From assembly GCF_964213995.1 (NCBI RefSeq), contig NC_135817.1:50282001-50346000 (forward strand): DNA of 64,000 nt. The letters are read 5' to 3'. Origin of the DNA: Mustelus asterias. Its lineage: Eukaryota. Shown here piece by piece: positions 1,410-57,614 of this stretch (the stretch's first letter is position 1; the number at the start of each line of letters is the position of its first letter). The notes beneath the pieces were generated by a model. It searched no databases and was not told where the DNA came from. It saw only the letters and a list, made by a program, of their open reading frames with translations. Both the position numbers and the translations under genes were made by a program.

Positions 1410-4240
1410 AACAATCCCGCACCAGCCTGTACACAACGCTGCACCGGCCTGCACACAACGCCGCACCGGCCTGCACACAACGCCGCACCGGCCTGCACAC
1501 AACCCCGCACCGGCCTGCACACAACCTCGCACCGGCCTGCACAAAACCCCGCACCAGCCTGTACACAAACCCGCACCAATCTGGACACAACCCCGCACCA
1601 ATCTGGACACAACCCCGCACCAGCCTGTACACAACCCCGCACCAATCTGTACACAAACCCGCACCAGCCTGTACACAAACCCGCACCAATCTGGACACAA
1701 CCCCGCACCAATCTGTACACAACCCAGCACCAGCCTGTACACAACCCCGCACCAATCTGTACACAACGCCGCACCAACCTGTACACAACCCAGCACCAAC
1801 CTGTACACAACCCCGCACCAGCCTGTACACAACCCCGCACCAATCTGTACACAAACCCGCACCAGCCTGTACACAACGCCGCACCAATCTGGACACAACC
1901 CCGCACCAATCTGTACACAACCCCGCACCAATCTGTACACAACGCCGCACCAATCTGTACACAACCCCGCACCAGCCTGTACACAACCCCGCACCAGCCT
2001 GTACACAACCCCGCACCAGCCTGTACACAACCCCGCACCAGCCTGTACACAACCCCGCACCAGCCTGTACACAACCCCGCACCAGCCTGTACACAACCCC
2101 GCACCAGCCTGTACACAACCCCGCACCAGCCTGTACACAACCCCGCACCAGCCTGTACACAACCCCGCACCAGCCTGTACACAACCCCGCACCAGCCTGT
2201 ACACAACCCCGCACCAGCCTGTACACAACCCCGCACCAGCCTGTACACAACCCCGCACCAGCCTGTACACAACCCCGCACCAGCCTGTACACAACCCCGC
2301 ACCAGCCTGTACACAACCCCGCACCAGCCTGTACACAACCCCGCACCAGCCTGTACACAACCCCGCACCAGCCTGTACACAACCCCGCACCAGCCTGTAC
2401 ACAACCCCGCACCAGCCTGTACACAACCCCGCACCAGCCTGTACACAACCCCGCACCAGGCTGTACACAATCCCGCACCAGCCTGTGTACAATCCCGCAC
2501 CAGCCTGTACACAATCCCGCACCAGCCTGTACACAACCCCGCACCAGCCTGTACACAGCCCCGCACCAGCCTGTACACAACCCCGCACCAGCCTGTACAC
2601 AATCCTTCACCAGCCTGTACACAATCCTTCACCAGCCTGTGCACAATCCCTCACCAGCCTGTGCACAATCCCTCACCAGCCTGTGCACAATCCCTCACCA
2701 ACCTGTGCACAACTCCGCACCAATCTGTACACAACCCCGCACCAATCTGTACACAACCCCGCACCAATCTGTACACAGCCCCGCACCAGCCTGTACACAA
2801 CCCCGCACCAATCTGTACACAACCCCGCACCAGCCTGTACACAACCCCGCACCAATCTGTACACAACCCCGCACCAATCTGTACACAACCCCGCACCAAT
2901 CTGTACACAACCCCGCACCAATCTGTACACAACCCCGCACCAATCTGTACACAACCCCGCACCAATCTGTACACAACCCCGCACCAATCTGTACACAACC
3001 CCGCACCAATCTGTACACAACCCCGCACCAATCTGTACACAACCCCGCACCAGCCTGTACACAGCCCCGCACCAGCCTGTACCAGCCTGTACACAGCCCC
3101 GCACCAATCTGTACACAATCCCTCACCAATCTGCACACAATCCCGCACCAGCCTGTACACAACCCCGCACCAGCCTGTACACAACCCCGCACCAGCCTGT
3201 ACACAATCCCGCACCAGCCTGTACACAACCCCGCACCAGCCTGTACACAACCCCGCACCAGCCTGTACACAACCCCGCACCAGCCTGTACACAACCCCGC
3301 ACCAGCCTGTACACAACCCCGCACCAGCCTGTACACAACCCCGCACCAGCCTGTACACAACCCCGCACCAGCCTGTACACAACCCCGCACCAGCCTGTAC
3401 ACAACCCCGCACCAATCTGTACACAACCCCGTACCAGCCTGTACACAACCCCGCACCAATCTGTACACAACCCCACACCAGCCTGTCTACAATCCCACAC
3501 CAGCCTGTACACAATCCCTCACCAACCTGTGCACAACCCCGCACCAACCTGTGCACAACCCCGCACCAACCTGTGCACAAACCCGCACCAACCTGTGCAC
3601 AACCCCGCACCAACCTGTACACAATCCCTCACCAACCTGTACACAATCCCTCACCAGCCTGTACACAATCCCTCACCAACCTGTACACAATCCCTCACCA
3701 GCCTGTACACAACCCCTCACCAACCTGTGCACAACCCCGCACCAACCTGTACACAATCCCTCACCAAACTGTACACAATCCCTCACCAACCTGTACACAA
3801 TCCCGCACCAGCCTGTACACAATCCCTCACCAGCCTGTACACAATCCCTCACCAATCTGTACACAACCCCGCGCCAACCTGTACACAATCCCTCACCAAT
3901 CTGTACACAACCCCGCTCCAACCTGTACACAACCCCGCTCCAACCTGTACACAATCCCGCACCAACCTGTACACAATCCCTCACTAATCTGTACACAATC
4001 CCTCACTAATCTGTACACAATCCCTCACCAACCTGTGCACAACCCCGCACCAACCTGTGCACAACCCCGCACCAACCTGTACACAACCCCGCACCAGCCT
4101 GTACACAACCCCGCACCAACCTGTACACAACCCCGCACCAACCTGTACACAACCCCGCACCAACCTGTACACAATCCCTCACCAACCTGTACACAACCCC
4201 GCACCAATCTGTACACAATCCCTCACCAACCTGTACACCA
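1410..4240 (-). repeat. 22-bp minisatellite (CACCAGCCTGTACACAACCCCG)n, ~128 units, inverted relative to the 310-1220 array
   Basis: Tandem array with a homogeneous core at ~1965-2458 and variant units at both ends. The reverse complement of the unit matches the first array unit at 17/22 positions. Confidence 0.95.
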
Positions 4241-4339: not shown

Positions 4340-4790
4340 GAGGGCCGGTAGCCCAGTCAGTCCAGTCCAGTCCAGTCCGGCCCAGCCCGGCCCGGCCTGA
4401 CCGCTCCGTTCCCTGAGCACCGACACCAAGGAGACTCTCCCTCTCCCAAACAGGCCAGCTGCTGGGTCAGACACTGCGCGTGCGCGCTGTCCCTCAGTGA
4501 GGTCATCGCGCAGGGCACGCGCTGAGCTTCCCGGACAACGTCAGCTGTCACGCGCCGCGGGGGGGGGGGTGCGCATGCGTGAGTGCGGCTGCGGAACTTG
4601 TTGAGGAGGGAGCGGGGACAGGGAGCGGGAGCTGTTGCCGGCTGCACACCCACTGACGGCCGCATGCTCCAGGCCGAGCGGGGGCTGCCGACATGCAGAA
4701 CGTCATTAACACTGTCAAAGGGACGGCGCTGGGAGTGGCAGAGTTCCTGACGCCGGTGCTGAAGGTGAGTGCTGCTGTTTGCTCAGGCCT
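4340..4790 (+). promoter_or_regulatory. ATG3: CpG-island promoter / 5' UTR of ATG3 with NRF1-like motifs
   Basis: CpG-dense, TATA-less region just upstream of ATG 4693; TGCGCATGCG at 4570-4579 and TGCGCGTGCGC at 4475-4485. Confidence 0.7.
4693..4764 (+). CDS. ATG3: ATG3 (autophagy E2-like conjugating enzyme) coding exon 1, [24 protein letters not shown]
   Basis: Near-identical to the vertebrate ATG3 N-terminus; donor AAG|GTGAGT. Confidence 0.97.
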
Positions 4791-5702
4791 GTGCTTCCCA
4801 AAAACACCCCCAAGTGACGACATTGAGCCTTCCGAGCCAACACTCAGCAGAGGGGCATGGAGTGGCTGGCCCACCGAGCAACCATAAACTCCACCAGATA
4901 ACTGACTGTCTTTGGCAGGCGAGGTTTGACTGGCCTCACTGAGGCTCTCACTGGGTGACAGGAGCTGCTCATCCATTCTGTCACTCATCAGGTTATGGCC
5001 CCTCATTTTTGTCATGTAAACTGTCATTGCCCACACTCAAACTCTTCAGCAGTCCAAGTCTGGCTGATTGTTGGTGAATGCCACTGTTTGTTGGTGAATG
5101 CCACTATTTGTGCTTCCTTTCTAAGCCAGTGAACCAGTTTGTAACTTTATACGGCTTTAAAATTGAAAGCACTACATGAACAAACCAAATAAGACACAAA
5201 GGCTGATCATTGCACCCAGCTTGGTCATTTTGGGAGTGACATTTCTTTTGGGAGTTGGTTCAAGGTGAAATTCTACTTTTTATAATCCTGGGTTGAAATG
5301 GGGATCTCGGTATGTAGAACCCATACTGCATTAGGAAGGTTCTGAGCGGATGGTGCAGGATTTGAGCTGGAAATTGCAGACCCAGTTAAGATATTTACTT
5401 TCGATTTCACTTATTATTATAACAGTAGTAAAAGTTTACTGTTGATTTGTTTTTACTTGTGGTCTATGGAGCAGCTATTAAGAAGGGAATTATCCTCAGT
5501 GGCATTGAATCATAGGATAATGCAGCACAGAAGGAGGCCATTCATCCCTTTGTGCCTGTATTGACTGCCTGAAAGAGTTACAAGTTTGTCTCAATCCCGT
5601 TCTTTGCCCAAATCCTTGCAACCTTCTCCAGTTTCCATTTTTGTTTATTTCTCACAATTTTTAATCTTTTGAAAAAAGTTTTCTTTTACCAGAACTTGCA
5701 CC

Positions 5703-6030
5703 CGGGTGGCACAGTGGTTAGCACTGCTGCCTCACAGCACCAGGGACCTGTGTTCGATTCCTGGTTTGGGTCACTGTCTGTGTGGAGTTTGCACATTCTC
5801 CCTGTGTCTGCGTGGGTTTCCTCTGGATGCTCTGGTTTCCTCCCACAGTCCAAAGATGTGCGGGTTAGGTAGATTGGATATGCTAAATTGCCCCTTAATG
5901 TCGGGGGAGGGGGGACTAGCTAGGGTTAGTGCATGGGGTTATGGGGATGGGGACTGGGTGGGATTGTGGTCGGTGTAGACTCGATGGGCCAAATGGCCGC
6001 CTCCTGCACTGTAGGATTCTGTGATTCTAT
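5703..6030 (+). mobile_element. HE1/V-SINE-like tRNA-derived SINE with CR1-type tail
   Basis: A box GGCACAGTGG, B box GTTCGATTCC, core GTGGGTTTCCTC.GG.TGCTC.GGTTTCCTCCCACAGTCCAAAGA, tail GGATTCTATG. Confidence 0.88.
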
Positions 6031-9666: not shown

Positions 9667-9896
9667 TTTTTAAAAAACATTACTCCATTCTTAAAGTTAC
9701 AAAGCCAATGCTTCGAGTGTACCAGGCAGATTCGAATCCAACTCCTTCCTTGCTCCAAAAATCAAATTTAAATTCAATCCAATTCATTGTCCCCTAAAGA
9801 GAGACAAACACGATCCCAAGCTGACAAGTTAAGGCATTGCACACAATCTTGGGCTTGAGCCGATGCTTGATCTTAGCCAAAAGACCGAGAGGCTAT
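9667..9896 (-). mobile_element. U2 snRNA-derived retrocopy / SINE-like element (divergent full-length U2 variant)
   Basis: 9896-9866 matches U2 nt 1-31 at 28/31. It then shows CTTGTCAG (U2 CTTATCAG), a stem IIb-like GTCTCTCTTTAGGGGAC, an exact Sm-site context GATTTTTGGAGCA (9763-9751) and stem III/IV-like hairpins. It sits inside a decayed CR1. Confidence 0.8.
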
Positions 9897-15565: not shown

Positions 15566-16672
15566 GAATAGAATCCCTACAGTGCAGAAGGAGGCCGTTG
15601 GGCCCATCAAACCTGCACCGACAACATTCCCACCCAGGCCCTATCCCTTTAACCGATGTATTTACCCTGCTAGTTCCCCGACACAAAGGGGCAACTTAGC
15701 ATGGCTAATCAATCTAACCTCGCATCTTTGGACTGTGGGAGGAACAGTAAGAAGTCTCACAACACCAGGTTAAAGTCCAACAGGTTTATTTGGTAGCAAA
15801 TACCATAAGCTTTCGGAGCGCTGCCCCTTCGTCAGATGGAATGAAAATCTGTTCTCCAACAGTGCACAGAGACACAACATCAAGTTACAGAATACTAATT
15901 AGAATGCAAATCTCTACAGCCAGCCAGGTCTTAAAGGTACAGATAATGTGGGTGGAGGGAACATTAAATAATGACAATAATTATCAGTAACCCCCACAGC
16001 TTGCTTCCTGATCTTGCAGAATCTTACTAGCTGTTCTGTCTGGAGACAATACACATCTCTTTAACCTGTGTTTAATGTTCCCACAGTAAGAAGTTTAACA
16101 ACACTAGGTTAAAGTCCAACAGGTTTATTTGGTAGCAAAAGCCACACTAGCTTTCGGAGCTGCAAGCCCCTTCTTCAGGTGAGTGGGAATTTTGCTACCA
16201 AATAAACCTGTTGGACTTTAACCTGGTGTTGTTAAACTTCTTACTGTGTTTACCCCAGTCCAACGCCGGCATCTCCACTTTAATGTTCCCTCCACCCACA
16301 TTATCTGTACCTTTAAGACCTGGCTGGCTGTAGAGATTTGCATTCTAATTAGTATTCTGTAACTTGATGTTGTGTCTCTGTGCACTGTTGGAGAACAGAT
16401 TTTCACTCCATCTGACGAAGGGGCAGCGCTCCAAAAGCTTATGGTATTTGCTACCAAATAAACCTGTTGGACTTTAACCTGGTGTTGTGAGACTTCTTAC
16501 TGTGCTTACCCCAGTCCAACGCCGGCATCTCCACATCTGTGGGAGGAAACCAAAGCAACCAGGGAGAACCTACGCAGACACGGGGAGAATGTGCATACAG
16601 ACAGTGACCCAAGGCTGGAATTGAACCTGGGTCCCTGGCGCTGTGAGACAGCAGTTCAAACTACCGTGCCAG
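15566..16672 (-). mobile_element. HE1-like SINE split by the Penelope-like insert
   Basis: Tail half at 15566-15744, head half at 16537-16672. Confidence 0.8.
15745..16536. mobile_element. Penelope-like inverted insert with hammerhead cores, 12-bp TSD CTGTGGGAGGAA, inside a SINE
   Basis: 224-bp inverted arms at 15745-15968 and 16279-16502; CTGANGA-stem-GAAA cores; TSD at 15733-15744 and 16537-16548. Confidence 0.8.
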
Positions 16673-16744: not shown

Positions 16745-16786
16745 GAGTCAAAGTTTAAAGAGACTGGAGTAATTACCCCAGAGGAG
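16745..16786 (+). CDS. ATG3: ATG3 coding exon 2, ESKFKETGVITPEE
   Basis: Polypyrimidine-CAG acceptor, GTGAGT donor, phase 0/0. Confidence 0.97.
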
Positions 16787-21849: not shown

Positions 21850-22935
21850 CTCAACTGTTTCTTAACAGTTTTATCTTATCTAACATTACAAAGATTTAAA
21901 GGCATGCATTAACATAAAATATCCCCAAAGTATTTACAAATAAGGTTCCCACACTCGTGACAGTGCACCAGCAATTATGTTCTCTCAGCCACATGAATGA
22001 TTTTCAAATTTAACAGTTGCAATTAAAATCTCCATCTGAATACCGGGTCTTCCGAATTCGAAACGTCTCCAGAAATATTAGGGGATTATGGTCTATGAAA
22101 CTGATTGTTTCTGCTGAATTCCTCAAAACATAATTCCCACAAATGTTGTAATGCCAATACCAAACTTTGTCACTTTTTCAATGGTAGAATACTTCTGTTG
22201 ATGGGGATTTAACTTCCTTGAGAAATGCCCCACAGGATCCTCAATTCAAAATTCATTTTCCTGTAACAGCACAGCTCCCACGCCAATGTCGCTAGCATCC
22301 ACAGCTAGTCTTTGTTAGCTGCACCAAATTATGACACTGGCACTGTTGTCAACACAGTTTTTAAATGTTGGAATGCAGTTTGGCAGTCCTCCGTCCAGTT
22401 AAATTTCTTATTCTTCTTCAAGTGTTCTGTTAGTGCTACTACACTGCTAAAGTTTGGCACAAACTTACTATAAAATCCACTCCAAAAGAGAAAATGCTGG
22501 AAAATCTCAGCAGGTCTGGCAACATCTGTAAGGAGAGAAAAGAGCTGACGTTTCGAGTGCCGATGACCCTTTGTCAAAGATCCAAAGGTCATCTGGACTC
22601 GAAACATCAGCTCCTTTCTCTCCTTACACATGCTGTCAGGCCTGCTGAGATTTTCCAACATTTCCTCCTTTGGTTTCAGATTCCAGCATCCGCGGTAATT
22701 TGTTTTTATAAAATCCACTTGTTCTCAGAAATCTTAAAATCTCTCTTCTTGTTGTAGGCTCTGGAAAATCCCAAAAAGGCCTGAATTTTCACATCTCGGG
22801 AAGCCATTTGACCATGTCCCACAATATGTCTTAAAAATGAAATTTGAGCTTTAACAAATTCACTTTTTGCCAAATTCATGACTAGATTAGTCTCTCTCAA
22901 ACTTTTAGGTGTTGCAGATGTTCTTCCCAACTTTG
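21850..22935 (-). mobile_element. Gypsy pol (RT-RNase H) fragment interrupted by a Penelope-like insert
   Basis: NLAKSEFVKAQISFL.H..G; GFYSKFVPNFS; FNWTEDCQTAFQHLK; VDASDIGVGAVLLQ. Confidence 0.8.
22482..22706. mobile_element. Penelope-like inverted insert (second family), 13-bp TSD TATAAAATCCACT
   Basis: Head-to-head copies of AAAATGCTGGAAAATCTCAGCAGGTCTGGC...; TSD at 22469-22481 and 22707-22719. Confidence 0.75.
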
Positions 22936-38255: not shown

Positions 38256-38337
38256 GTACCTTCTAATATTTTTGAAATTTGTTCAAGCAGTCATTCCAAC
38301 AATTGAATATGATTACACAAGACACTTTACCATGTAG
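38256..38337 (+). CDS. ATG3: ATG3 last coding exon, (M)[26 protein letters not shown]
   Basis: Matches the vertebrate ATG3 C-terminus; TAG stop. The spliced CDS totals 951 nt. Confidence 0.97.
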
Positions 38338-44780: not shown

Positions 44781-45280
44781 AAGCAAAAGAGAAAATGCGA
44801 GAAAATCTCAGCAGGTCTGGCAGCTTCTGTAAGGTGAGAAGAGCTGATGTTTCGAGTCCAGATGACCCTTTGTCAAAGCTAAAAGGCATAGAAAATGGGA
44901 GATATTTATACTGCAGGGTGAGAGAATGAAAGATGAGTTATTGCCACAGAAACCAGGGGAAAAGACTGCTAATGTCTGTCCACAGAGAGAATAGAGTGTG
45001 TGAATGGCCAAATGGCAGAGAAGCTAAAATGAAGATGTTGCGTTTTTATTGAGATCTTTCCCCTCCCCTCCCCTGCTTTCCGTGGCTATGACATCTTTCA
45101 TTCCTTCACCCCGCAGTATAAATATCTCCCATTTTCTATGCCTTTTAGCTTTGACAAAGAGTTGGCTGGACTGGAAACATCAGTTCTTTTCTCTCCTTAC
45201 AGATGCTGCCAGACCTGCTGAGATTTTCCAGCATTTTCTCTTTTGGTTTCAGATTCCAGCATCCACAGTAATTTGCTTTT
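44781..45280. mobile_element. Penelope-like inverted insert (second family), 14-bp TSD ATGGCTTAAACAAG
   Basis: Inverted arms at ~44785-44970 and ~45070-45245; TSD at 44767-44780 and 45281-45294. Confidence 0.75.
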
Positions 45281-45774
45281 ATGGCTTAAACAAGGATCCG
45301 CCTCCATGGTTTCAATCTCACCTTCTGAGATTCTTTTCCCCTGGATCTCTGAGTATTTGCAAACTTTACCTTCCAAGCACACTTTCAGATCTTCAGCCAT
45401 GCCAAACAGAACACCACTGCTCTAAAAGGGTAACCATTCAGAGTGAGAAAAGCACTTTCATTTTGCTCCTGAGTGACCAACATCTCAATTAGATCACCCT
45501 TCAAGTTCCTACATTCAAGAGAATACAAGTCAGGTTTGTACAACTTGTCCTTGTAATTTAAATCTCCAAGGCCTGCTAGCACCCTGATGAATATGCTCCA
45601 AGGCCAGTATAACCTTTATGAATTAGTGTCCAAACCCAAACACGACTCCATTGGGCTTGGTTGAGTTTGATGTATGACTTCCTCCCCTTCGTATTTCAGT
45701 CTCTTTGAGGTAGAAGCTAACTTTGCAGAAGCTTTTTTTAATGGAGATTTATCTAAAGTCCTATTATATTTTCA

Positions 45775-46060
45775 TAGGTTTCATAGAATCCCTACAGTTC
45801 AGAAGGAGGTCATTCAGCCCATTGAGTCTGTACTGACCACAATCCCACCCAGGCCCTATTCCCATAACTCTCATTTACCCTGCTAATCCCCCTGATACTA
45901 GGGTCAATTTAGCTTGGTCAATCAACCTAACCTGTGCATCTTTGGAAACCCACGCAGACATGGGGAGAAAGCGCAAACTCCACAAGACCGTGACCCGAGG
46001 CTGGAATTGAACCTGGGTCCCTGGCGCTGAGAGGCAGCAGTGCTAACTACTGTGCTGCCC
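45775..46060 (-). mobile_element. HE1-like SINE, CR1-type tail
   Basis: Reverse complement of the 5703-6030 type. Confidence 0.8.
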
Positions 46061-49217: not shown

Positions 49218-50242
49218 ATGGCTGGTATGAGTGGGAGGACAGTATACTGCATTTGGTGTGGGATGTGGGGGTTCCTGGAGACGACTTGCCTCCCGGAAGT
49301 CCATATCTGTGCCAGATGTGTGGAACTGCAACTCCTGAAGAATCGTGTAAGGGAGCTGGAGCTGAGGCTCGATGAACTCAGTTTAGTTAGGGAAAATGAG
49401 AGATTAATAGAAGTTATAGTCAGGTAGTGACACCAGCGTCTCGGAAGGAAGATACGTGGGTCACAGTTAGGAGGGGTAATAGTCAGAAGGGTGATGTGCC
49501 AGAAAGTACCCCAGTGGCAGTCTCCCATAAAAGAAAGGGATGGGCAACAGATGGGAGAAGGGAAGGGAGTGAGCAGTCTGTGGAGGGATCCCCTGTGGTT
49601 GTCCCCCTCCAAAATAGGTATATTGTTTTGGATTCTGTGGAGGGGAATGACCCTCCAGGGGTAAGCCACGAGGACCAGATCGCCTCCACGGAGACAGGCT
49701 CAGGGGTCCGGAAGGGAAAGAAGGGGTTTAGGAGAGCGATAGTTGTGGGGGACGCAATGGTTAGAGGCACGGACAGGCGGTTCTGTGGGAGTGAACGAGA
49801 ATCCAGGATGGTAGTCTGCCTCCCTGGTGCCGGGGTACTGGATGTCTCCGAGAGGGTAGGAAGCATATTTAAAAAGGAAGGTAGTCAAACGGATGTGATT
49901 GTACACATTGGTGAAAATGATGTAGGTAGGAAGAGCAGGGGGGTCATACGAGAGAAATTCAGGGAGTTGGGTGCTAGGCTAAAAAGTAAGGCCTCCAGGG
50001 TAGCAATCTCTGGACTGCTCCCGGTGTCTAGTGCAAGTGAGGCTCAGAACAGGGAGATTCTACAGTTGAACGCGTGGCTAAAGGACTGGTGCAAGAGGGA
50101 GGGTTTTAAATTCATAGATAACTGGGAAATCTTCAAGTCAGGATGGCAACTGTTCAGAAAGGATGGGTTACACCTCAACTGGAAGGGAGCAAATATCCTG
50201 GCTGAGAGTTTTGCTAGAGTGTTTCGGCAGGATTTAAACTAG
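49218..50242 (+). pseudogene. CR1 ORF1 (zinc-finger CxxC..CxxC, coiled coil, SGNH esterase), frameshifted near 49410-49427
   Basis: MAGMSGRTVYCIWCGMW...CARC...LELRLDEL, then a stop at 49427; continues in another frame to IVVGDAMVRG...DGLHLN. Confidence 0.85.
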
Positions 50243-50243
50243 T

Positions 50244-53165
50244 GTGGCAGGGGGGGGTGGGGAACAAAACAGGAGGTCAGTAAATACTGAGGCTGGGGTT
50301 GAGCTGGGGGCCAGGGCAAGGCTAGCTAAGAAGAGGAGCACTCTGGAGCAGGATGACCTGAGTGGGCCTGGAGGTCTGGAGTGCATCTGCTTCAATGCGA
50401 GGAGCGTAACGGGTAAAACAGACCAACTTAGGGCATTAATGCTTATGCGGAATTTGGATGTGGTTGCGGTGACGGAAACTTGGTTAAAAGGACAGGACTG
50501 GCAGCTGAATATTCCGGGGTATAAGTGTTTTAGGCGAGACAGAGGAGGGGCTAAAAAAGGTGGGGGAGTAGCGATATTAGTTAAGGAGCATATTACCGCG
50601 GTGCAGAGGGTAGACAACTTAGAGGGGTCATGTACTGAGTCGCTGTGGGTGGAACTCAGAAACAGGAAGGGTGCAGTCACTATGCTGGGGGTGTACTACA
50701 GACCACCCAACAGCCCACGGGAAGTGGAGGAAAGGATATGTCAGGAGATTCTGCATAGGTGCAGAAAAAATAGGGTTGTTGTAGTGGGGGACTTTAATTT
50801 CCCTGGCACAGACTGGAAAGTGCTTAGAGCTGGGGGTCCGGACGGGGAGGAATTTGTAAAATGCGTACTGGAAGGTTCTTTGGAACAGTATGTAGATAGC
50901 CCGACTAGAGAGGGGGCTATACTGGACCTAGTTCTGGGAAATGAGCCCGGTCAGGTCGTCAAAGTTTCGGTAGGGGAACATGTGGCAAATAGTGACCACA
51001 ACTCTGTTAACTTTAGGATAGTAATGGACAAGGATGAGTGCTGTCCTACGGGCAGGGTGCTAAATTGGGGGAAGGCTAACTATAGCCGGATTAGGCAGGA
51101 ATTGGTGGATGTTGATTGGGAGAGGATGTTCGAGGGTAAGTCCGCGTCTGGCATGTGGGAGTCTTTTAAGGAACTATTGATAAGGCTGCAGGATAGGCAT
51201 GTGCCTGTAAAAAGGAAAGATAGGAAAGATAGGATTCGAGAACCGTGGATAACCAGGGAAATTGAGGATCTGATTAAAATGAAAAGGGAGGCGTACGTTA
51301 AGTCCAGGCAACTGAAAACAGATGGAGCTCTGGAGGAATACAGAGAGAGTAGGAAAGAACTCAGATGGGGAGTTAGAAGGGCAAAAAGAGGTCACGAGAT
51401 GTTCTTGGCAGGCAGGATTAAGGAGAATCCTAAGGCATTCTATTCATACGTTAGGAACAAAAGAGTTGTCAGGGAGAGAATTGGACCTCTCAGGGACAAA
51501 GGAGGGGAATTATGCTTAGAACCCAAGGGAATAGGGGCGATCCTAAATGAATACTTTGCATCGGTATTCACGAAGGAGAGGGGCGTGTTAACCGGGAGTG
51601 TCTCGGAGGGAGGTGTTGACCCGTTAGAGAAAATCTCCATTACAAGAGAGGAAGTGTTAGGTTTTTTAGGGAACATTAAAACTGACAAAGCCCCAGGGCC
51701 TGATGGCATCTATCCTCGACTGCTCAGGGAGACGAGAGATGAAATTGCTGGGACTCTGACGGAAATCTTTGTCGCTTCTTTGGACACGGGTGAGGTCCCT
51801 GAGGATTGGAGGATAGCGAATGTGGTCCCGTTGTTTAAGAAGGGTAGCAGGGATAACCCAGGAAATTATAGGCCGGTGAGCTTGACGTCCGTGGTAGGGA
51901 AGTTGTTGGAGAGGATTCTTAGAGACAGGATGTATGTGCATTTAGAACGGAACAATCTCATTAGTGACAGACAGCATGGTTTTGTAAGAGGGAGGTCGTG
52001 CCTTACAAATTTGGTGGAGTTTTTTGAGGAAGTGACAAAAACGGTCGATGAAGGAAGGACCGTGGATGTCGTCTATATGGATTTCAGTAAGGCATTTGAC
52101 AAAGTCCCACATGGCAGGTTGGTTAAGAAGGTTAAGGCTCATGGGATACAAGGAGAGGTGGCTAGATGGGTGGAGAACTGGCTTGGCCATAGGAGACAGA
52201 GGGTAGTGGTCGAAGGGTCTTTTTCCGGCTGGAGGTCTGTGACCAGTGGTGTTCCGCAGGGCTCTGTACTGGGACCTCTGCTATTTGTGATATATATAAA
52301 TGATTTGGAAGAAGGTGTAACTGGTGTAATCAGCAAGTTTGCGGATGACACGAAGATGGCTGGACTTGCGGATAGCGAAGAGCATTGTCGGGCAATACAG
52401 CAGGATATAGATAGGCTGGAAAATTGGGCGGAGAGGTGGCAGATGGAGTTTAATCCGGATAAATGCGAAGTGATGCATTTTGGAAGAAATAATGTAGGGA
52501 GGAGTTATACAATAAATGGCAGAGTCATCAGGAGTATAGAAACACAGAGGGACCTAGGTGTGCAAGTCCACAAATCCTTGAAGGTGGCAACACAGGTGGA
52601 GAAGGTGGTGAAGAAGGCATATGGTATGCTTGCCTTTATAGGACGGGGTATAGAGTATAAAAGCTGGAGTCTGATGATGCAGCTGTATAGAACGCTGGTT
52701 AGACCACATTTGGAGTACTGCGTCCAGTTCTGGTCGCCACACTACCAGAAGGACGTGGAGGCGTTAGAGAGAGTGCAGAGAAGGTTTACCAGGATGTTGC
52801 CTGGTATAGAGGGTCTTAGCTATGAGGAGAGATTGGGTAGACTGGGGTTGTTCTCCTTGGAAAGACGGAGAATGAGGGGAGATCTAATAGAGGTGTACAA
52901 GATTATGAAGGGTACAGATAGGGTGAACAGTGGGAAGCTTTTTCCCAGGTCGGAGGTGACGATCACGAGAGGTCACGGCCTCAAGGTGAGAGGGGCGAAG
53001 TATAACTCAGATATCAGAGGGACGTTTTTTACACAGAGGGTGGTGGCGGCCTGGAATGCGCTGCCAAGTAGGGTGGTGGAGGCAGGCACGCTGACATCGT
53101 TTAAGACTTACCTGGATAGTCACATGAGCAGCCTGGGAATGGAGGGATACAAACGATTGGTCTAG
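50244..53165 (+). CDS. CR1 ORF2: APE endonuclease plus reverse transcriptase, 973 aa uninterrupted
   Basis: FNARS, VTETW, GDFN and SDHN endonuclease motifs; YRPVSL, DFSKAFD, PQGSVLGP and FADD RT motifs. Confidence 0.95.
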   Translation: MAGGGGEQNRRSVNTEAGVELGARARLAKKRSTLEQDDLSGPGGLECICFNARSVTGKTDQLRALMLMRNLDVVAVTETWLKGQDWQLNIPGYKCFRRDRGGAKKGGGVAILVKEHITAVQRVDNLEGSCTESLWVELRNRKGAVTMLGVYYRPPNSPREVEERICQEILHRCRKNRVVVVGDFNFPGTDWKVLRAGGPDGEEFVKCVLEGSLEQYVDSPTREGAILDLVLGNEPGQVVKVSVGEHVANSDHNSVNFRIVMDKDECCPTGRVLNWGKANYSRIRQELVDVDWERMFEGKSASGMWESFKELLIRLQDRHVPVKRKDRKDRIREPWITREIEDLIKMKREAYVKSRQLKTDGALEEYRESRKELRWGVRRAKRGHEMFLAGRIKENPKAFYSYVRNKRVVRERIGPLRDKGGELCLEPKGIGAILNEYFASVFTKERGVLTGSVSEGGVDPLEKISITREEVLGFLGNIKTDKAPGPDGIYPRLLRETRDEIAGTLTEIFVASLDTGEVPEDWRIANVVPLFKKGSRDNPGNYRPVSLTSVVGKLLERILRDRMYVHLERNNLISDRQHGFVRGRSCLTNLVEFFEEVTKTVDEGRTVDVVYMDFSKAFDKVPHGRLVKKVKAHGIQGEVARWVENWLGHRRQRVVVEGSFSGWRSVTSGVPQGSVLGPLLFVIYINDLEEGVTGVISKFADDTKMAGLADSEEHCRAIQQDIDRLENWAERWQMEFNPDKCEVMHFGRNNVGRSYTINGRVIRSIETQRDLGVQVHKSLKVATQVEKVVKKAYGMLAFIGRGIEYKSWSLMMQLYRTLVRPHLEYCVQFWSPHYQKDVEALERVQRRFTRMLPGIEGLSYEERLGRLGLFSLERRRMRGDLIEVYKIMKGTDRVNSGKLFPRSEVTITRGHGLKVRGAKYNSDIRGTFFTQRVVAAWNALPSRVVEAGTLTSFKTYLDSHMSSLGMEGYKRLV

Positions 53166-54258: not shown

Positions 54259-54381
54259 GTCTACTGGGTCCCACTCTGCGAGCAGAAGTCGGAGATACCT
54301 TAAAGATCCATTTCAAGAATAAGGCTACTTATCCCGTCAACATTCGCCCGCAGGGAATCATGCAGGGACAATCAGCTGAGG
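54259..54381 (+). CDS. F5: Factor V-like exon 3, GLLGPTLRAEVGDTLKIHFKNKATYPVNIRPQGIMQGQSAE(G)
   Basis: TACAG acceptor, GTAAGG donor, 123 nt. GLLGPTL.AEVGD..K.HFKNKA....I.PQGI fits FV better than FVIII, ceruloplasmin or hephaestin. Confidence 0.85.
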
Positions 54382-54428
54382 GTAAGGTTGGATTGAATTA
54401 TTTGTCCAAGTGTATGCCCCGCGCCGAG

Positions 54429-54577
54429 TTTATTTTTTTAAATACTTTTCCAATTCAATCAAATCAAATTCAGAGTCTCAACAAGTTGAGACATTTCCGA
54501 TCCAGGCTGACAAGACAGGGCGAGCGACCAAACCACCCTGTCCTGATCCACATGAGCCAAGCTGATTGGAGAAGGGG
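54429..54577 (-). mobile_element. Second, more divergent U2-like element in F5-like intron 3
   Basis: Shares the CTTGTCAG.{2,3}GGATCG, GTCTC...GAGAC hairpin and GAATTxGATT core with 9667-9896; degenerate U2 head CTTCTC..TTGGCT..GATCAGG; A-rich 3' end. Confidence 0.6.
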
Positions 54578-54726
54578 GAGGTTCCTCCTCCAAGACTAAA
54601 GCATTGGTTTACTGCTCAAGAGTTTGAATTCAGTGGGGTTGATTTGCAAGTTTCATTGTGAGGAGGGCAAATATGCGTTGTTTCAAGGTAGTGCCAGATT
54701 CTCCTGAACTATGAAATCACTGAAGT

Positions 54727-54850: not shown

Positions 54851-55371
54851 GACGCTATTGTGTGAGGATCATTGATACTATATATTTTTATGGGTGCATC
54901 CAGCTCTTTTGGGACATGAAGTTGGTAGTGGTGAGGTTATCTCTCCAAACGTTTTATGCCCTCAAATTCCTCCCTCCCACACTTCCTGTCAACATCTCCC
55001 GCCCCCGGAGTTCCTGATCTTCTATGTCGTATTATTAACTGGAGATAGTGAACTGAGACCAGCCTTAGGTACAGAGATATTTACACAATAGTCACGTAGT
55101 CAATCGTATTATTTACCAGCTTTACTATTTGGAAATGTGTGAACACATTCCAAAGGTCACTGGATTCATCCCATACTAGGAAAATGTTATCTGCCCTTTC
55201 AGGGAAGATTGCTGGAGCGGCTGCACTGGAATTGCATATTCTAGTCAGGTTCCTGTCCTCTACTCCACAGATGTCTAGGAATTCACAAAGGCTGCCACTT
55301 ATCTCACAATACTTTCCATTTCATCTGGTTTCTACTGGACACTTACTAGAAGACACCTATGTTGGGAAGGC

Positions 55372-55662
55372 ACTGTGGCACAATGGTTAGCACTGCCTCA
55401 CAGTGCCATGGACTCTGGTTCAATTCCCGTCTTGGGTGACTGCAGTTTAAACATTCTCCCTGTGTCTGTGTGGTTTTCTCCGGTTGCTTTGATTTCCTCC
55501 CACAGTCCAAAGATGTGTGGGTTAGATGGATTGGCCATGCTAAATTGCCCCTCAATGTCAGAGGGCCTAGCTAGGGTAAACGCAGAGAGATGGGGCCTGG
55601 GTGGGATTATTGTTGGTGAGCCTCGATGGGCCGAATGGCCTCCTTCCGCACTGTAGGATTCT
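55372..55662 (+). mobile_element. HE1-like SINE, CR1-type tail
   Basis: Same structure as 5703-6030. Confidence 0.85.
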
Positions 55663-56749: not shown

Positions 56750-57066
56750 GCCGGCACGGTGGGCACAGTGGTTAGCACCATTGCCTCACAGCGCCATGGA
56801 CCCAGGTTCAATTCCAGCCTCGGGTGACTGTGGAATTTACACATTCTCCCCATGTCTGCGTTGGTTTCCTCCGGGTGCTCCGGTTTCCTCCCACAGTCAA
56901 AATATGTGCAGATTAGGATGATTGGCCATGACAAATTGTCTCTTAGTGTTAGGGAGGTTAGCAGGGTAAATACGTGGGGTTACGGGGATAGGGCCTGGGT
57001 GGGATTGTTGTCGGTGCAGGCTTGATGGGCCGAATGACCTCCTTCTGCACTGTACGGATTCTATGA
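56750..57066 (+). mobile_element. HE1-like SINE, CR1-type tail
   Basis: Same structure as 5703-6030. Confidence 0.87.
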
Positions 57067-57614
57067 TTAAGCTCTTAAAGTGACAGTGCAACAATACAAC
57101 AGCCCCAAAAATTTACACTATCACCTTTCTGCAGAATTGTATTTAATTTGCTTTGAATTGTATTGAGTTTCATAAATGACAATGAAAGTGAACTTACTTT
57201 TTTCTTTGCAAAGTCTAGCCCATCATTGAGGGGTGAACATCAGCAAAATTCTGGCGCACAAGAAAATGATTTGTGCTAACGAGTGCTCTGTTTGACCCTC
57301 TGTGCTTTGGTGCAATTTCATTGGTGGCTTTGATAGGTAAATCAGCACAGCTTTTAACATTTTGGTCAGGAGTCTGTGGCAACATAGCGTATCACTATTG
57401 GGGGAAGAAATTCCAGCAGGAATTGGGCTACTGCCAGGAATTCTAGCCCAGGAAGTCTCACCGATTTCCTTGTGTAACCTTCTCTTCCCAATCCTCCCCA
57501 TTATCAATGGTATCAACTTTTTGTTGAACTGCTTTTGTGTTTCATTTGAGAAACAAAATGGCTCCAATACAGCTGACCATAGCAGGCTGTTACTTGAAAT
57601 ATGCACAAGCAACT

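Follow-up and report, generated by a model that had tools for sequence, protein, structure and literature searches.

The element at positions 54429 to 54578 of the window (the whole 64,000-nucleotide stretch of shark DNA that was analysed) probably goes back to a short, non-autonomous retroposon derived from U2 snRNA, of which it is an old copy that is no longer active; this retroposon would have worked like the SINEU elements of crocodilians. Sequence comparisons establish that this element (E2) and a second one in the window (E1) share a common ancestor that had already diverged from U2, and that their lineage descends from U2. The two were inserted separately, into unrelated introns, and the E2 copy itself is most likely inert and does nothing.

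Position and plan of the two elements

54429..54578, reverse strand: E2, decayed and U2-derived, with an A-rich end behind a part that corresponds to U2 from nt 1 to about nt 107
54546..54578, reverse strand: head of E2, degenerate U2 from about nt 1 to 21, then a 10-nt insertion
54511..54545, reverse strand: E2 hairpin at the position of the U2 branch-point stem-loop (BSL), 12 stacked pairs, 11-nt insertion, no branch-point motif
54493..54514, reverse strand: core of E2 common to E1, U2 nt 45-67 with derived changes
54475..54492, reverse strand: stem IIb equivalent of E2, 6/6 scored pairs retained
54449..54471, reverse strand: short tandem repeats of E2, former Sm-site region
54429..54449, reverse strand: A-rich end of E2, 15 A in 21 nt
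54259..54381, forward strand: coagulation factor V-like exon of 123 nt with AG/GT ends
9667..9896, reverse strand: E1, U2-derived, antisense in ATG3 intron 1
9866..9896, reverse strand: fresh head of E1, near-intact U2 nt 1-31 (28/31), ahead of an older head
9829..9865, reverse strand: stretch of E1 earlier taken for an insert, consisting of an old-head remnant (9852-9865) and ungapped decayed U2 22-44 (9829-9851)
near 4690-4764, near 16750 and near 38260, forward strand: exon 1, exon 2 and last coding exon of ATG3

E2 lies antisense in the intron that follows the factor V-like exon, 47 nt from that exon. The letters quoted for it in an earlier, sequence-only reading are present, including the 7-bp Watson-Crick stem at 54514-54542, the stem IIb equivalent and the A-rich end. 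The stem IIb equivalent lies where that reading placed it, but instead of the perfect 8-bp stem with a TT loop described there, folding gives 7 bp and a loop of 4 nt. The U2 3' domain is absent from E2, and its repeat region contains two minimal (three-U) matches to an Sm site, the five-U tract being absent. The 10-nt insertion behind its head starts like a 7-nt insertion of E1.

The plan of E1 differs in that a near-intact U2 1-31 precedes a decayed U2 15-44, a head addition that was not seen in E2. The 24-nt surplus of E1 sits 5' of the branch-point slot and represents this duplicated U2 head. Because the first head agrees with U2 at 28 of 31 positions and the slot behind it at 12 of 22, two ages are present within one element, and the newer U2 head was placed before the older one. 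In E1 a canonical Sm site is furthermore retained, as is the U2 3' domain in decayed form.

Kinship of the two elements

The local alignment of E1 and E2 scores 49, which none of 5000 dinucleotide shuffles attained (maximum 44), and for either element no non-self tile of the window scores better than the other one, with runners-up at 35.5 and 33. A shuffled control of this kind had been named in the sequence-only reading as capable of refuting it, and its proposal of one U2-derived lineage with shared derived changes is supported. With a transition-aware matrix 1/5000 shuffles reached the score, and the reciprocal E-values in nhmmer are 0.02 and 0.031. The significance is located in a 53-nt core (0/5000), in which E1 and E2 are about 70% alike, while their overall plans differ. 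The two heads do not align significantly in local comparison (1323/5000 shuffles), and the relationship of the tails is marginal (115/5000 shuffles; 30/3046 window tiles, with E1's own tile counted). The flanks display no relationship (upstream 398/1000 and downstream 132/1000 shuffles reach the score), so that the two are no segmental duplicate, and none of the four flanks matches anything else within the window at E<=1.

Kinship was also compared with independent decay. Pairs of copies decayed in simulation to the same distances from U2, with fish-like and invertebrate-like U2 as stand-ins for the U2 of the host, attained the E1-E2 score in 0-14 of 5000 cases in all 16 settings. E1 and E2 are closer to each other than these simulated pairs, which points to one ancestor already changed from U2. 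In particular, A48G, A56G, A57G and T62G are common to both elements and occur in 0/12 true U2 genes, as had been claimed for the shared changes in general; C at position 53 is found in 7/12 true U2 genes and is therefore not derived. A column count of shared changes (13/52 columns, P 0.005 to 0.11) suffers from an alignment in which E2 lies one base out of register, and the kinship consequently rests on the simulation instead.

Relationship to U2 snRNA

The U2 reference was drawn from 42 loci of a U2-head scan, which are eukaryotic U2 genes in bacterial genome records. Three of them were left out since their host is unclear, 20 were scanned with Rfam and confirmed, and 12 full-length genes, two of them fish-like, were used. 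The 42 matches (L001-L042) stem from GTDB records and document eukaryotic contamination there. One of them, L033:391-580 (+), is a full-length U2 gene (150.8 bits) with a non-standard branch-point recognition stretch, likewise a eukaryotic contaminant in a bacterial record. Heads of this type (also in L003, L022 and L025) were found joined to non-U2 sequence, in some cases in tandem. In L005 and L015, U2 nt 1-41 and 1-33 are joined to non-U2 sequence near the Keno/Utopia site, and both fusions sit among arrays of intact U2 genes.

E1 resembles both fish-like U2 genes more than any of 5000 shuffles does, and its match to the Rfam U2 model has 33.3 bits (E 0.0058), under the gathering score of 46. 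E2 alone appears only weakly U2-like by sequence. Rfam yields no U2 match for it at E<=10 in 54300-54700 (401 nt), where matches to SNORD94, mir-26 and ceN23-1 are at chance level, and 0 matches in the window at gathering score; a profile of the 12 U2 genes misses it as well, and among 1682 window tiles compared with U2 it lies outside the top 12. Whole E2 against the two whole fish-like genes is equalled by 64 and 739/5000 shuffles, and against the other ten U2 genes by 12 to 330/1000. Its core is closer to U2 39-110 of the fish-like genes (3 and 41/5000). The degenerate U2 head proposed earlier has a modest likeness to U2 when both ends are anchored (152 and 72/5000), but not in the local head test given above. 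With U2 1-44 anchored along the first 64 nt of E2, the score is reached by 78 and 17/5000 shuffles and by 72 and 32/9838 window tiles. The tie of E2 to U2 is modest in such anchored comparisons and is further provided through E1.

The base of the BSL and stem IIb are retained in both elements; the branch-point recognition motif and stem IIa are lost. Of stem IIa 4/6 pairs are left in E2 and 3/6 in E1, while all six scored pairs of stem IIb remain in each, two of them in E2 by two-sided change. Covariation over the whole alignment does not exceed that of shuffles (74/500). The lineage has lost parts that U2 needs for splicing, and E2 is not a functional U2: it fails in gathering score, branch-point motif and stem IIa as well as in the Sm site and the 3' stem-loops, for which it has the minimal three-U matches and no 3' domain, whereas E1 keeps both in part.

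The branch-point slot

The available text of PMC13019295 places the BSL at U2 nt 23-47. In E1 the 22 nt just before the core correspond to U2 23-44 without a gap (12 identities, 6 transitions, 4 transversions), a score that is attained by 51/20000 shuffles and 117/127956 window positions, with offset 0 the best of 25. The slot of E1 therefore has the same length as that of U2 and contains no insert. An exchangeable hairpin in this slot, as suggested by the sequence-only reading, thus finds no support; the stem of E2 does lie at the BSL position, but the insert of E1 with which it was equated is not there. Unprompted, nhmmer likewise aligns the supposed insert of E1 to the head and hairpin of E2.

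The slot of E2 does not align to U2 without gaps (4937/20000 shuffles are as good). A gapped alignment needs two single-base gaps in the left arm and loop, a further single-base gap in the right arm and, in addition, an insertion of 11 nt; it is equalled by 322 and 103/5000 shuffles against U2 and by 67 and 187/5000 against E1, weak values for which the ends were picked after inspection. In this gapped register the pair U22-A48 at the foot of the U2 BSL has become C-G in both E1 and E2; the five-letter left arm arises by chance in 276/3198 40-nt tiles. The hairpin of E2 is predicted with 12 stacked pairs at a probability of at least 0.95 around the 7-bp Watson-Crick core, and its fold energy is -23.7 kcal/mol, where the corresponding stretch of U2 has -2.9 kcal/mol. 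By itself a 7-bp stem is nothing unusual, since 83/394 150-nt tiles have one, and the z-scores of folding obtained for the stems are inflated because these were picked. From its sequence we interpret the hairpin as most likely U2's own BSL, lengthened and strengthened and with an 11-nt insertion (p 0.02-0.06, weak). Complementarity of its loop to other sequences had been proposed as a subject of search, and on neither strand does the rest of the window contain a match to the loop at up to 3 mismatches.

Ends, promoter signals and copy number

Old retroposon copies lose their target-site duplications. None above chance was detected here: the best candidate has 9 nt with at most one mismatch, and 59% of 150 random places are equal to it; a 6-nt direct repeat in the flanks is, by rough estimate, within chance. 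E1 ends in T6A5 and has no clean poly(A). The A-rich end of E2 may be either a decayed poly(A) or a motif similar to the snRNA 3' box (2 mismatches, starting at 54445); the ends of both elements match the 3'-box consensus with 2 mismatches against a background of 2.5-2.7% of 15-nt ranges. In E1 this motif lies 14 nt past the Rfam end, in E2 at the end of the element. The power of this test is low, with 0/12 true U2 loci at 2 mismatches or fewer. The consensus is that of PMC2582628, and PMC2811027 gives the same one.

Genes of snRNA type transcribed by pol II are marked by a PSE near -55, an octamer near -220 and a 3' box about 10 nt downstream. The regions from -75 to -41 of the two fish-like U2 genes resemble each other (0.06% of tiles), and those of E1 and E2 are unlike each other and unlike those of these two genes, a comparison that is a weak test for a shark PSE. 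A PSE-like stretch at -64 of E2 was dropped, as 18% of window tiles score equally. Within 400 nt upstream, E1 has no octamer and E2 has two sites with 1 mismatch (-71 and -159), at a background of 1.7 per kb. An arrangement of pol III A and B boxes above background was not found in E2.

The 64-kb window contains no third copy. A model built from E1 and E2 gave 16 matches, of which the 14 beyond these two had E-values of at least 0.79; its matches to E1 and E2 are no evidence since it was built from them. In a typical window, two copies in 64 kb would correspond to 31 per Mb (95% range 3.8-113), and neither the high copy number anticipated from them nor the putative division into two subfamilies is confirmed by two copies. 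A pattern of the family core has 0 matches in bacterial and archaeal genome contigs, blastn against plasmids gave 6 short matches, none over more than 16% of the query, and the translated frames of E2, used as probes for further copies, gave one candidate and nothing significant. Four other matches to these frames, of low identity or in multiple stretches, were judged unrelated.

Surroundings in the window

A perfect 9-bp inverted repeat pairs 54452-54460, in the tandem repeats of E2, with 54391-54399 in the intron just past the donor site of the factor V-like exon, and may be due to chance. Beside E1 lies a possible 30-nt exon. A 162-aa ORF without Pfam match (4548-5036, reverse strand) corresponds to ATG3 exon 1 read in antisense and is probably spurious, and GC-rich tandem arrays of 11 bp and 22 bp (320-1208 and 1411-4238) are situated just upstream of this exon.

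An intact LINE ORF of 975 aa (50238-53165, forward strand) combines endonuclease and reverse transcriptase and is CR1-like by its relatives. Its best match (73%) is labelled a bacterial protein, which is probably host contamination. Among the 120 matches listed, the top named animal is a catshark (62% identity, with 72% of the query covered); a ray has 49%, birds, turtles and a frog lie at 38-53%, and no crocodilian is included. These relatives indicate, though they do not prove, a cartilaginous fish as host. A frequent repeat about 300 bp long, one end of which is tRNA-like (5700-6030, 45771-46055, 55369-55662, 56753-57068 and others; copies about 72-85% alike) is probably the main tRNA-derived SINE of the genome. 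Repeat copies also form long inverted repeats (22482-22673, 15728-16519, 44781-45248), and the Rfam microRNA matches at 22482-22673 are spurious because of the inverted repeat there. Neither a Tx1-type partner nor a shared target repeat was identified in the window.

Origin of the elements

For a retroposon speak the kinship of the two elements, their unrelated flanks, the two head ages in E1, the A-rich end, the missing pol III boxes, the lost branch-point motif, the reduced stem IIa and the parallels with SINEU-3. Against it stand the number of only two copies, the limited similarity of their cores and their differing plans, as well as the lack of a duplication above chance, of a clean poly(A) and of a Tx1 partner in the window, and the weak match of E2 to U2. 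A retrocopy of a mature RNA should moreover carry no 3' box, a motif that the ends of E1 and E2 match with the mismatches given above. Under this reading a master RNA would have been transcribed from outside its own sequence, namely from flanking DNA, as the analogy with SINEU suggests, and copied by the reverse transcriptase of a LINE, by the same analogy of Tx1/Keno type. Template switching onto U2 snRNA may have added the fresh head of E1, and the branch of E2 would have dropped the U2 3' domain. The master RNA could have been under some pressure to keep the hairpins of the BSL base and stem IIb, or palindrome-repair mutation perfected both.

The shared changes would also be explained if both elements were low-copy pseudogenes that go back to a single diverged U2 variant gene, or to one U2 pseudogene of early date, and had been dispersed by occasional retroposition or by duplication of DNA, with no self-propagating family involved. 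The window with neither a third copy nor a target-site duplication is in line with this, but two copies in 64 kb are unlikely for a rare sequence (the lower bound is 3.8 per Mb in a typical window), and the fresh head on the old body of E1 and the unrelated flanks likewise count against such pseudogenes, which we consider rather unlikely. That the elements are functional genes of snRNA type, with a promoter and a 3' box of their own and encoding variant RNAs derived from U2 whose BSL is locked shut, is improbable. The box-like motifs, the Sm site of E1 and the retention of stem IIb and of the BSL base by changes on both sides would suit such genes, as would the folding of E2, which is better than that of shuffles (2/200 reach it, z -2.8); however, E1 folds no better than shuffles (137/200), E2 is devoid of the U2 3' stem-loops, the region from -75 to -41 has no promoter likeness, octamer-like sites are restricted to the imperfect ones of E2, and the box test is weak. 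It is very unlikely, too, that the lineage consists of U2-derived RNAs expressed throughout sharks, with the BSL locked by compensatory pairs, a varied apical loop and an end at an snRNA 3' box, although the 11-nt insertion and the retained hairpins of E2 are compatible with such RNAs; their role would be that of decoys or guides, directed at introns, U2 snRNP proteins or a partner retrotransposon.

Very little probability is likewise left for a constant U2-derived scaffold with an exchangeable hairpin. The two slots indeed fail to align in the register of the sequence-only reading (1309 and 1532/5000), and E2's slot is unlike U2 without gaps and its loop is partly new sequence, but the slot of E1 is plain decayed U2, both stem arms of E2 are derivable from U2 22-48, nhmmer places the E1 stretch against the E2 head and hairpin, and the loop has no target within the window. 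Even less probable is an origin from a Keno or Utopia element that had inserted into a U2 gene and left a remnant there. Both target the site U2 38/39 according to the available text of PMC4640811, and the 11-nt insertion of E2 aligns within about 1 nt of it, but its junction has neither a reverse-transcriptase ORF nor an A-tail, E1 has no insertion at U2 38/39, and the downstream U2 part is derived and common to both elements rather than intact. We likewise give hardly any credence to a chimera or chance resemblance in which only the core is shared and the head and hairpin of E2 stem from an unrelated repeat: the insignificant local tests of the head and the weak slot alignment would be expected from it, but the anchored alignment of U2 1-44 and the C-G pair common to both elements at the BSL base speak against it.

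Comparison with known systems

E2 is collinear with U2 1-107 and E1 with the whole of U2 snRNA (RF00004), and stem IIb and the pairing of the BSL base are kept; unlike U2 and its pseudogenes, E1 remains under the gathering score, E2 is undetected, and branch-point motif and stem IIa are gone. Independent U2 pseudogenes differ in addition by the changes that E1 and E2 have in common. The U2-targeting retrotransposons Keno (Tx1 clade) and Utopia have their target site inside the slot, according to the text available from PMC4640811, and relatives of Keno are the proposed drivers of SINEU. In contrast to them, E2 has no coding sequence and is not inserted in an intact U2 gene, and a junction between the 3' end of a retrotransposon and an intact U2 at nt 39 was not found.

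The closest parallel is SINEU, which the available portions of Kojima 2015 (PMC4494074) describe only from crocodilians, with repeated 5' addition of U2 pieces, no internal promoter, a target-site duplication that is not always present and a mode of transcription left open; SINEU-3 has a 32-bp U2 5' part and an internal deletion. As far as this text goes, E1 and E2 resemble SINEU-3 and SINEU-1 as short, interspersed, U2-derived elements with a U2 5' unit of about 31-32 nt, in which heads of U2 were added repeatedly, U2 parts were lost internally and an internal pol III promoter is missing. The U2-derived 5' part, the shared derived structure and, in E1, the recurrent head addition that characterise SINEU are present. 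Unlike in SINEU-3, the branch-point region is decayed but kept instead of deleted, and the BSL of E2 is strengthened; the host is a shark rather than a crocodilian, and the poly(A), target-site duplication, Mariner target and Tx1-Mar partner of SINEU have at most putative counterparts here. We refrain from filing the elements as SINEU-1, -2 or -3, given their other host and with a partner, a high copy number, a poly(A) and a duplicated target that are putative at best.

E1 and E2 are best read, by this analogy, as a SINEU-like lineage of U2-derived retroposons in a shark. It is a real lineage, and for sharks it may be undescribed: no title or abstract among the papers searched reports a U2-derived lineage there, the portion of PMC5786205 that mentions SINEU does so without sharks, and the lineage may already be catalogued in Repbase, Dfam or subscription journals, which lay outside the scope of this search. 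An independent U2-derived lineage in cartilaginous fish would provide a second system for the question of SINEU transcription, and, with head addition at U2 nt 31-32 as in SINEU, it would reveal the U2 hairpins that an RNA of this kind retains.
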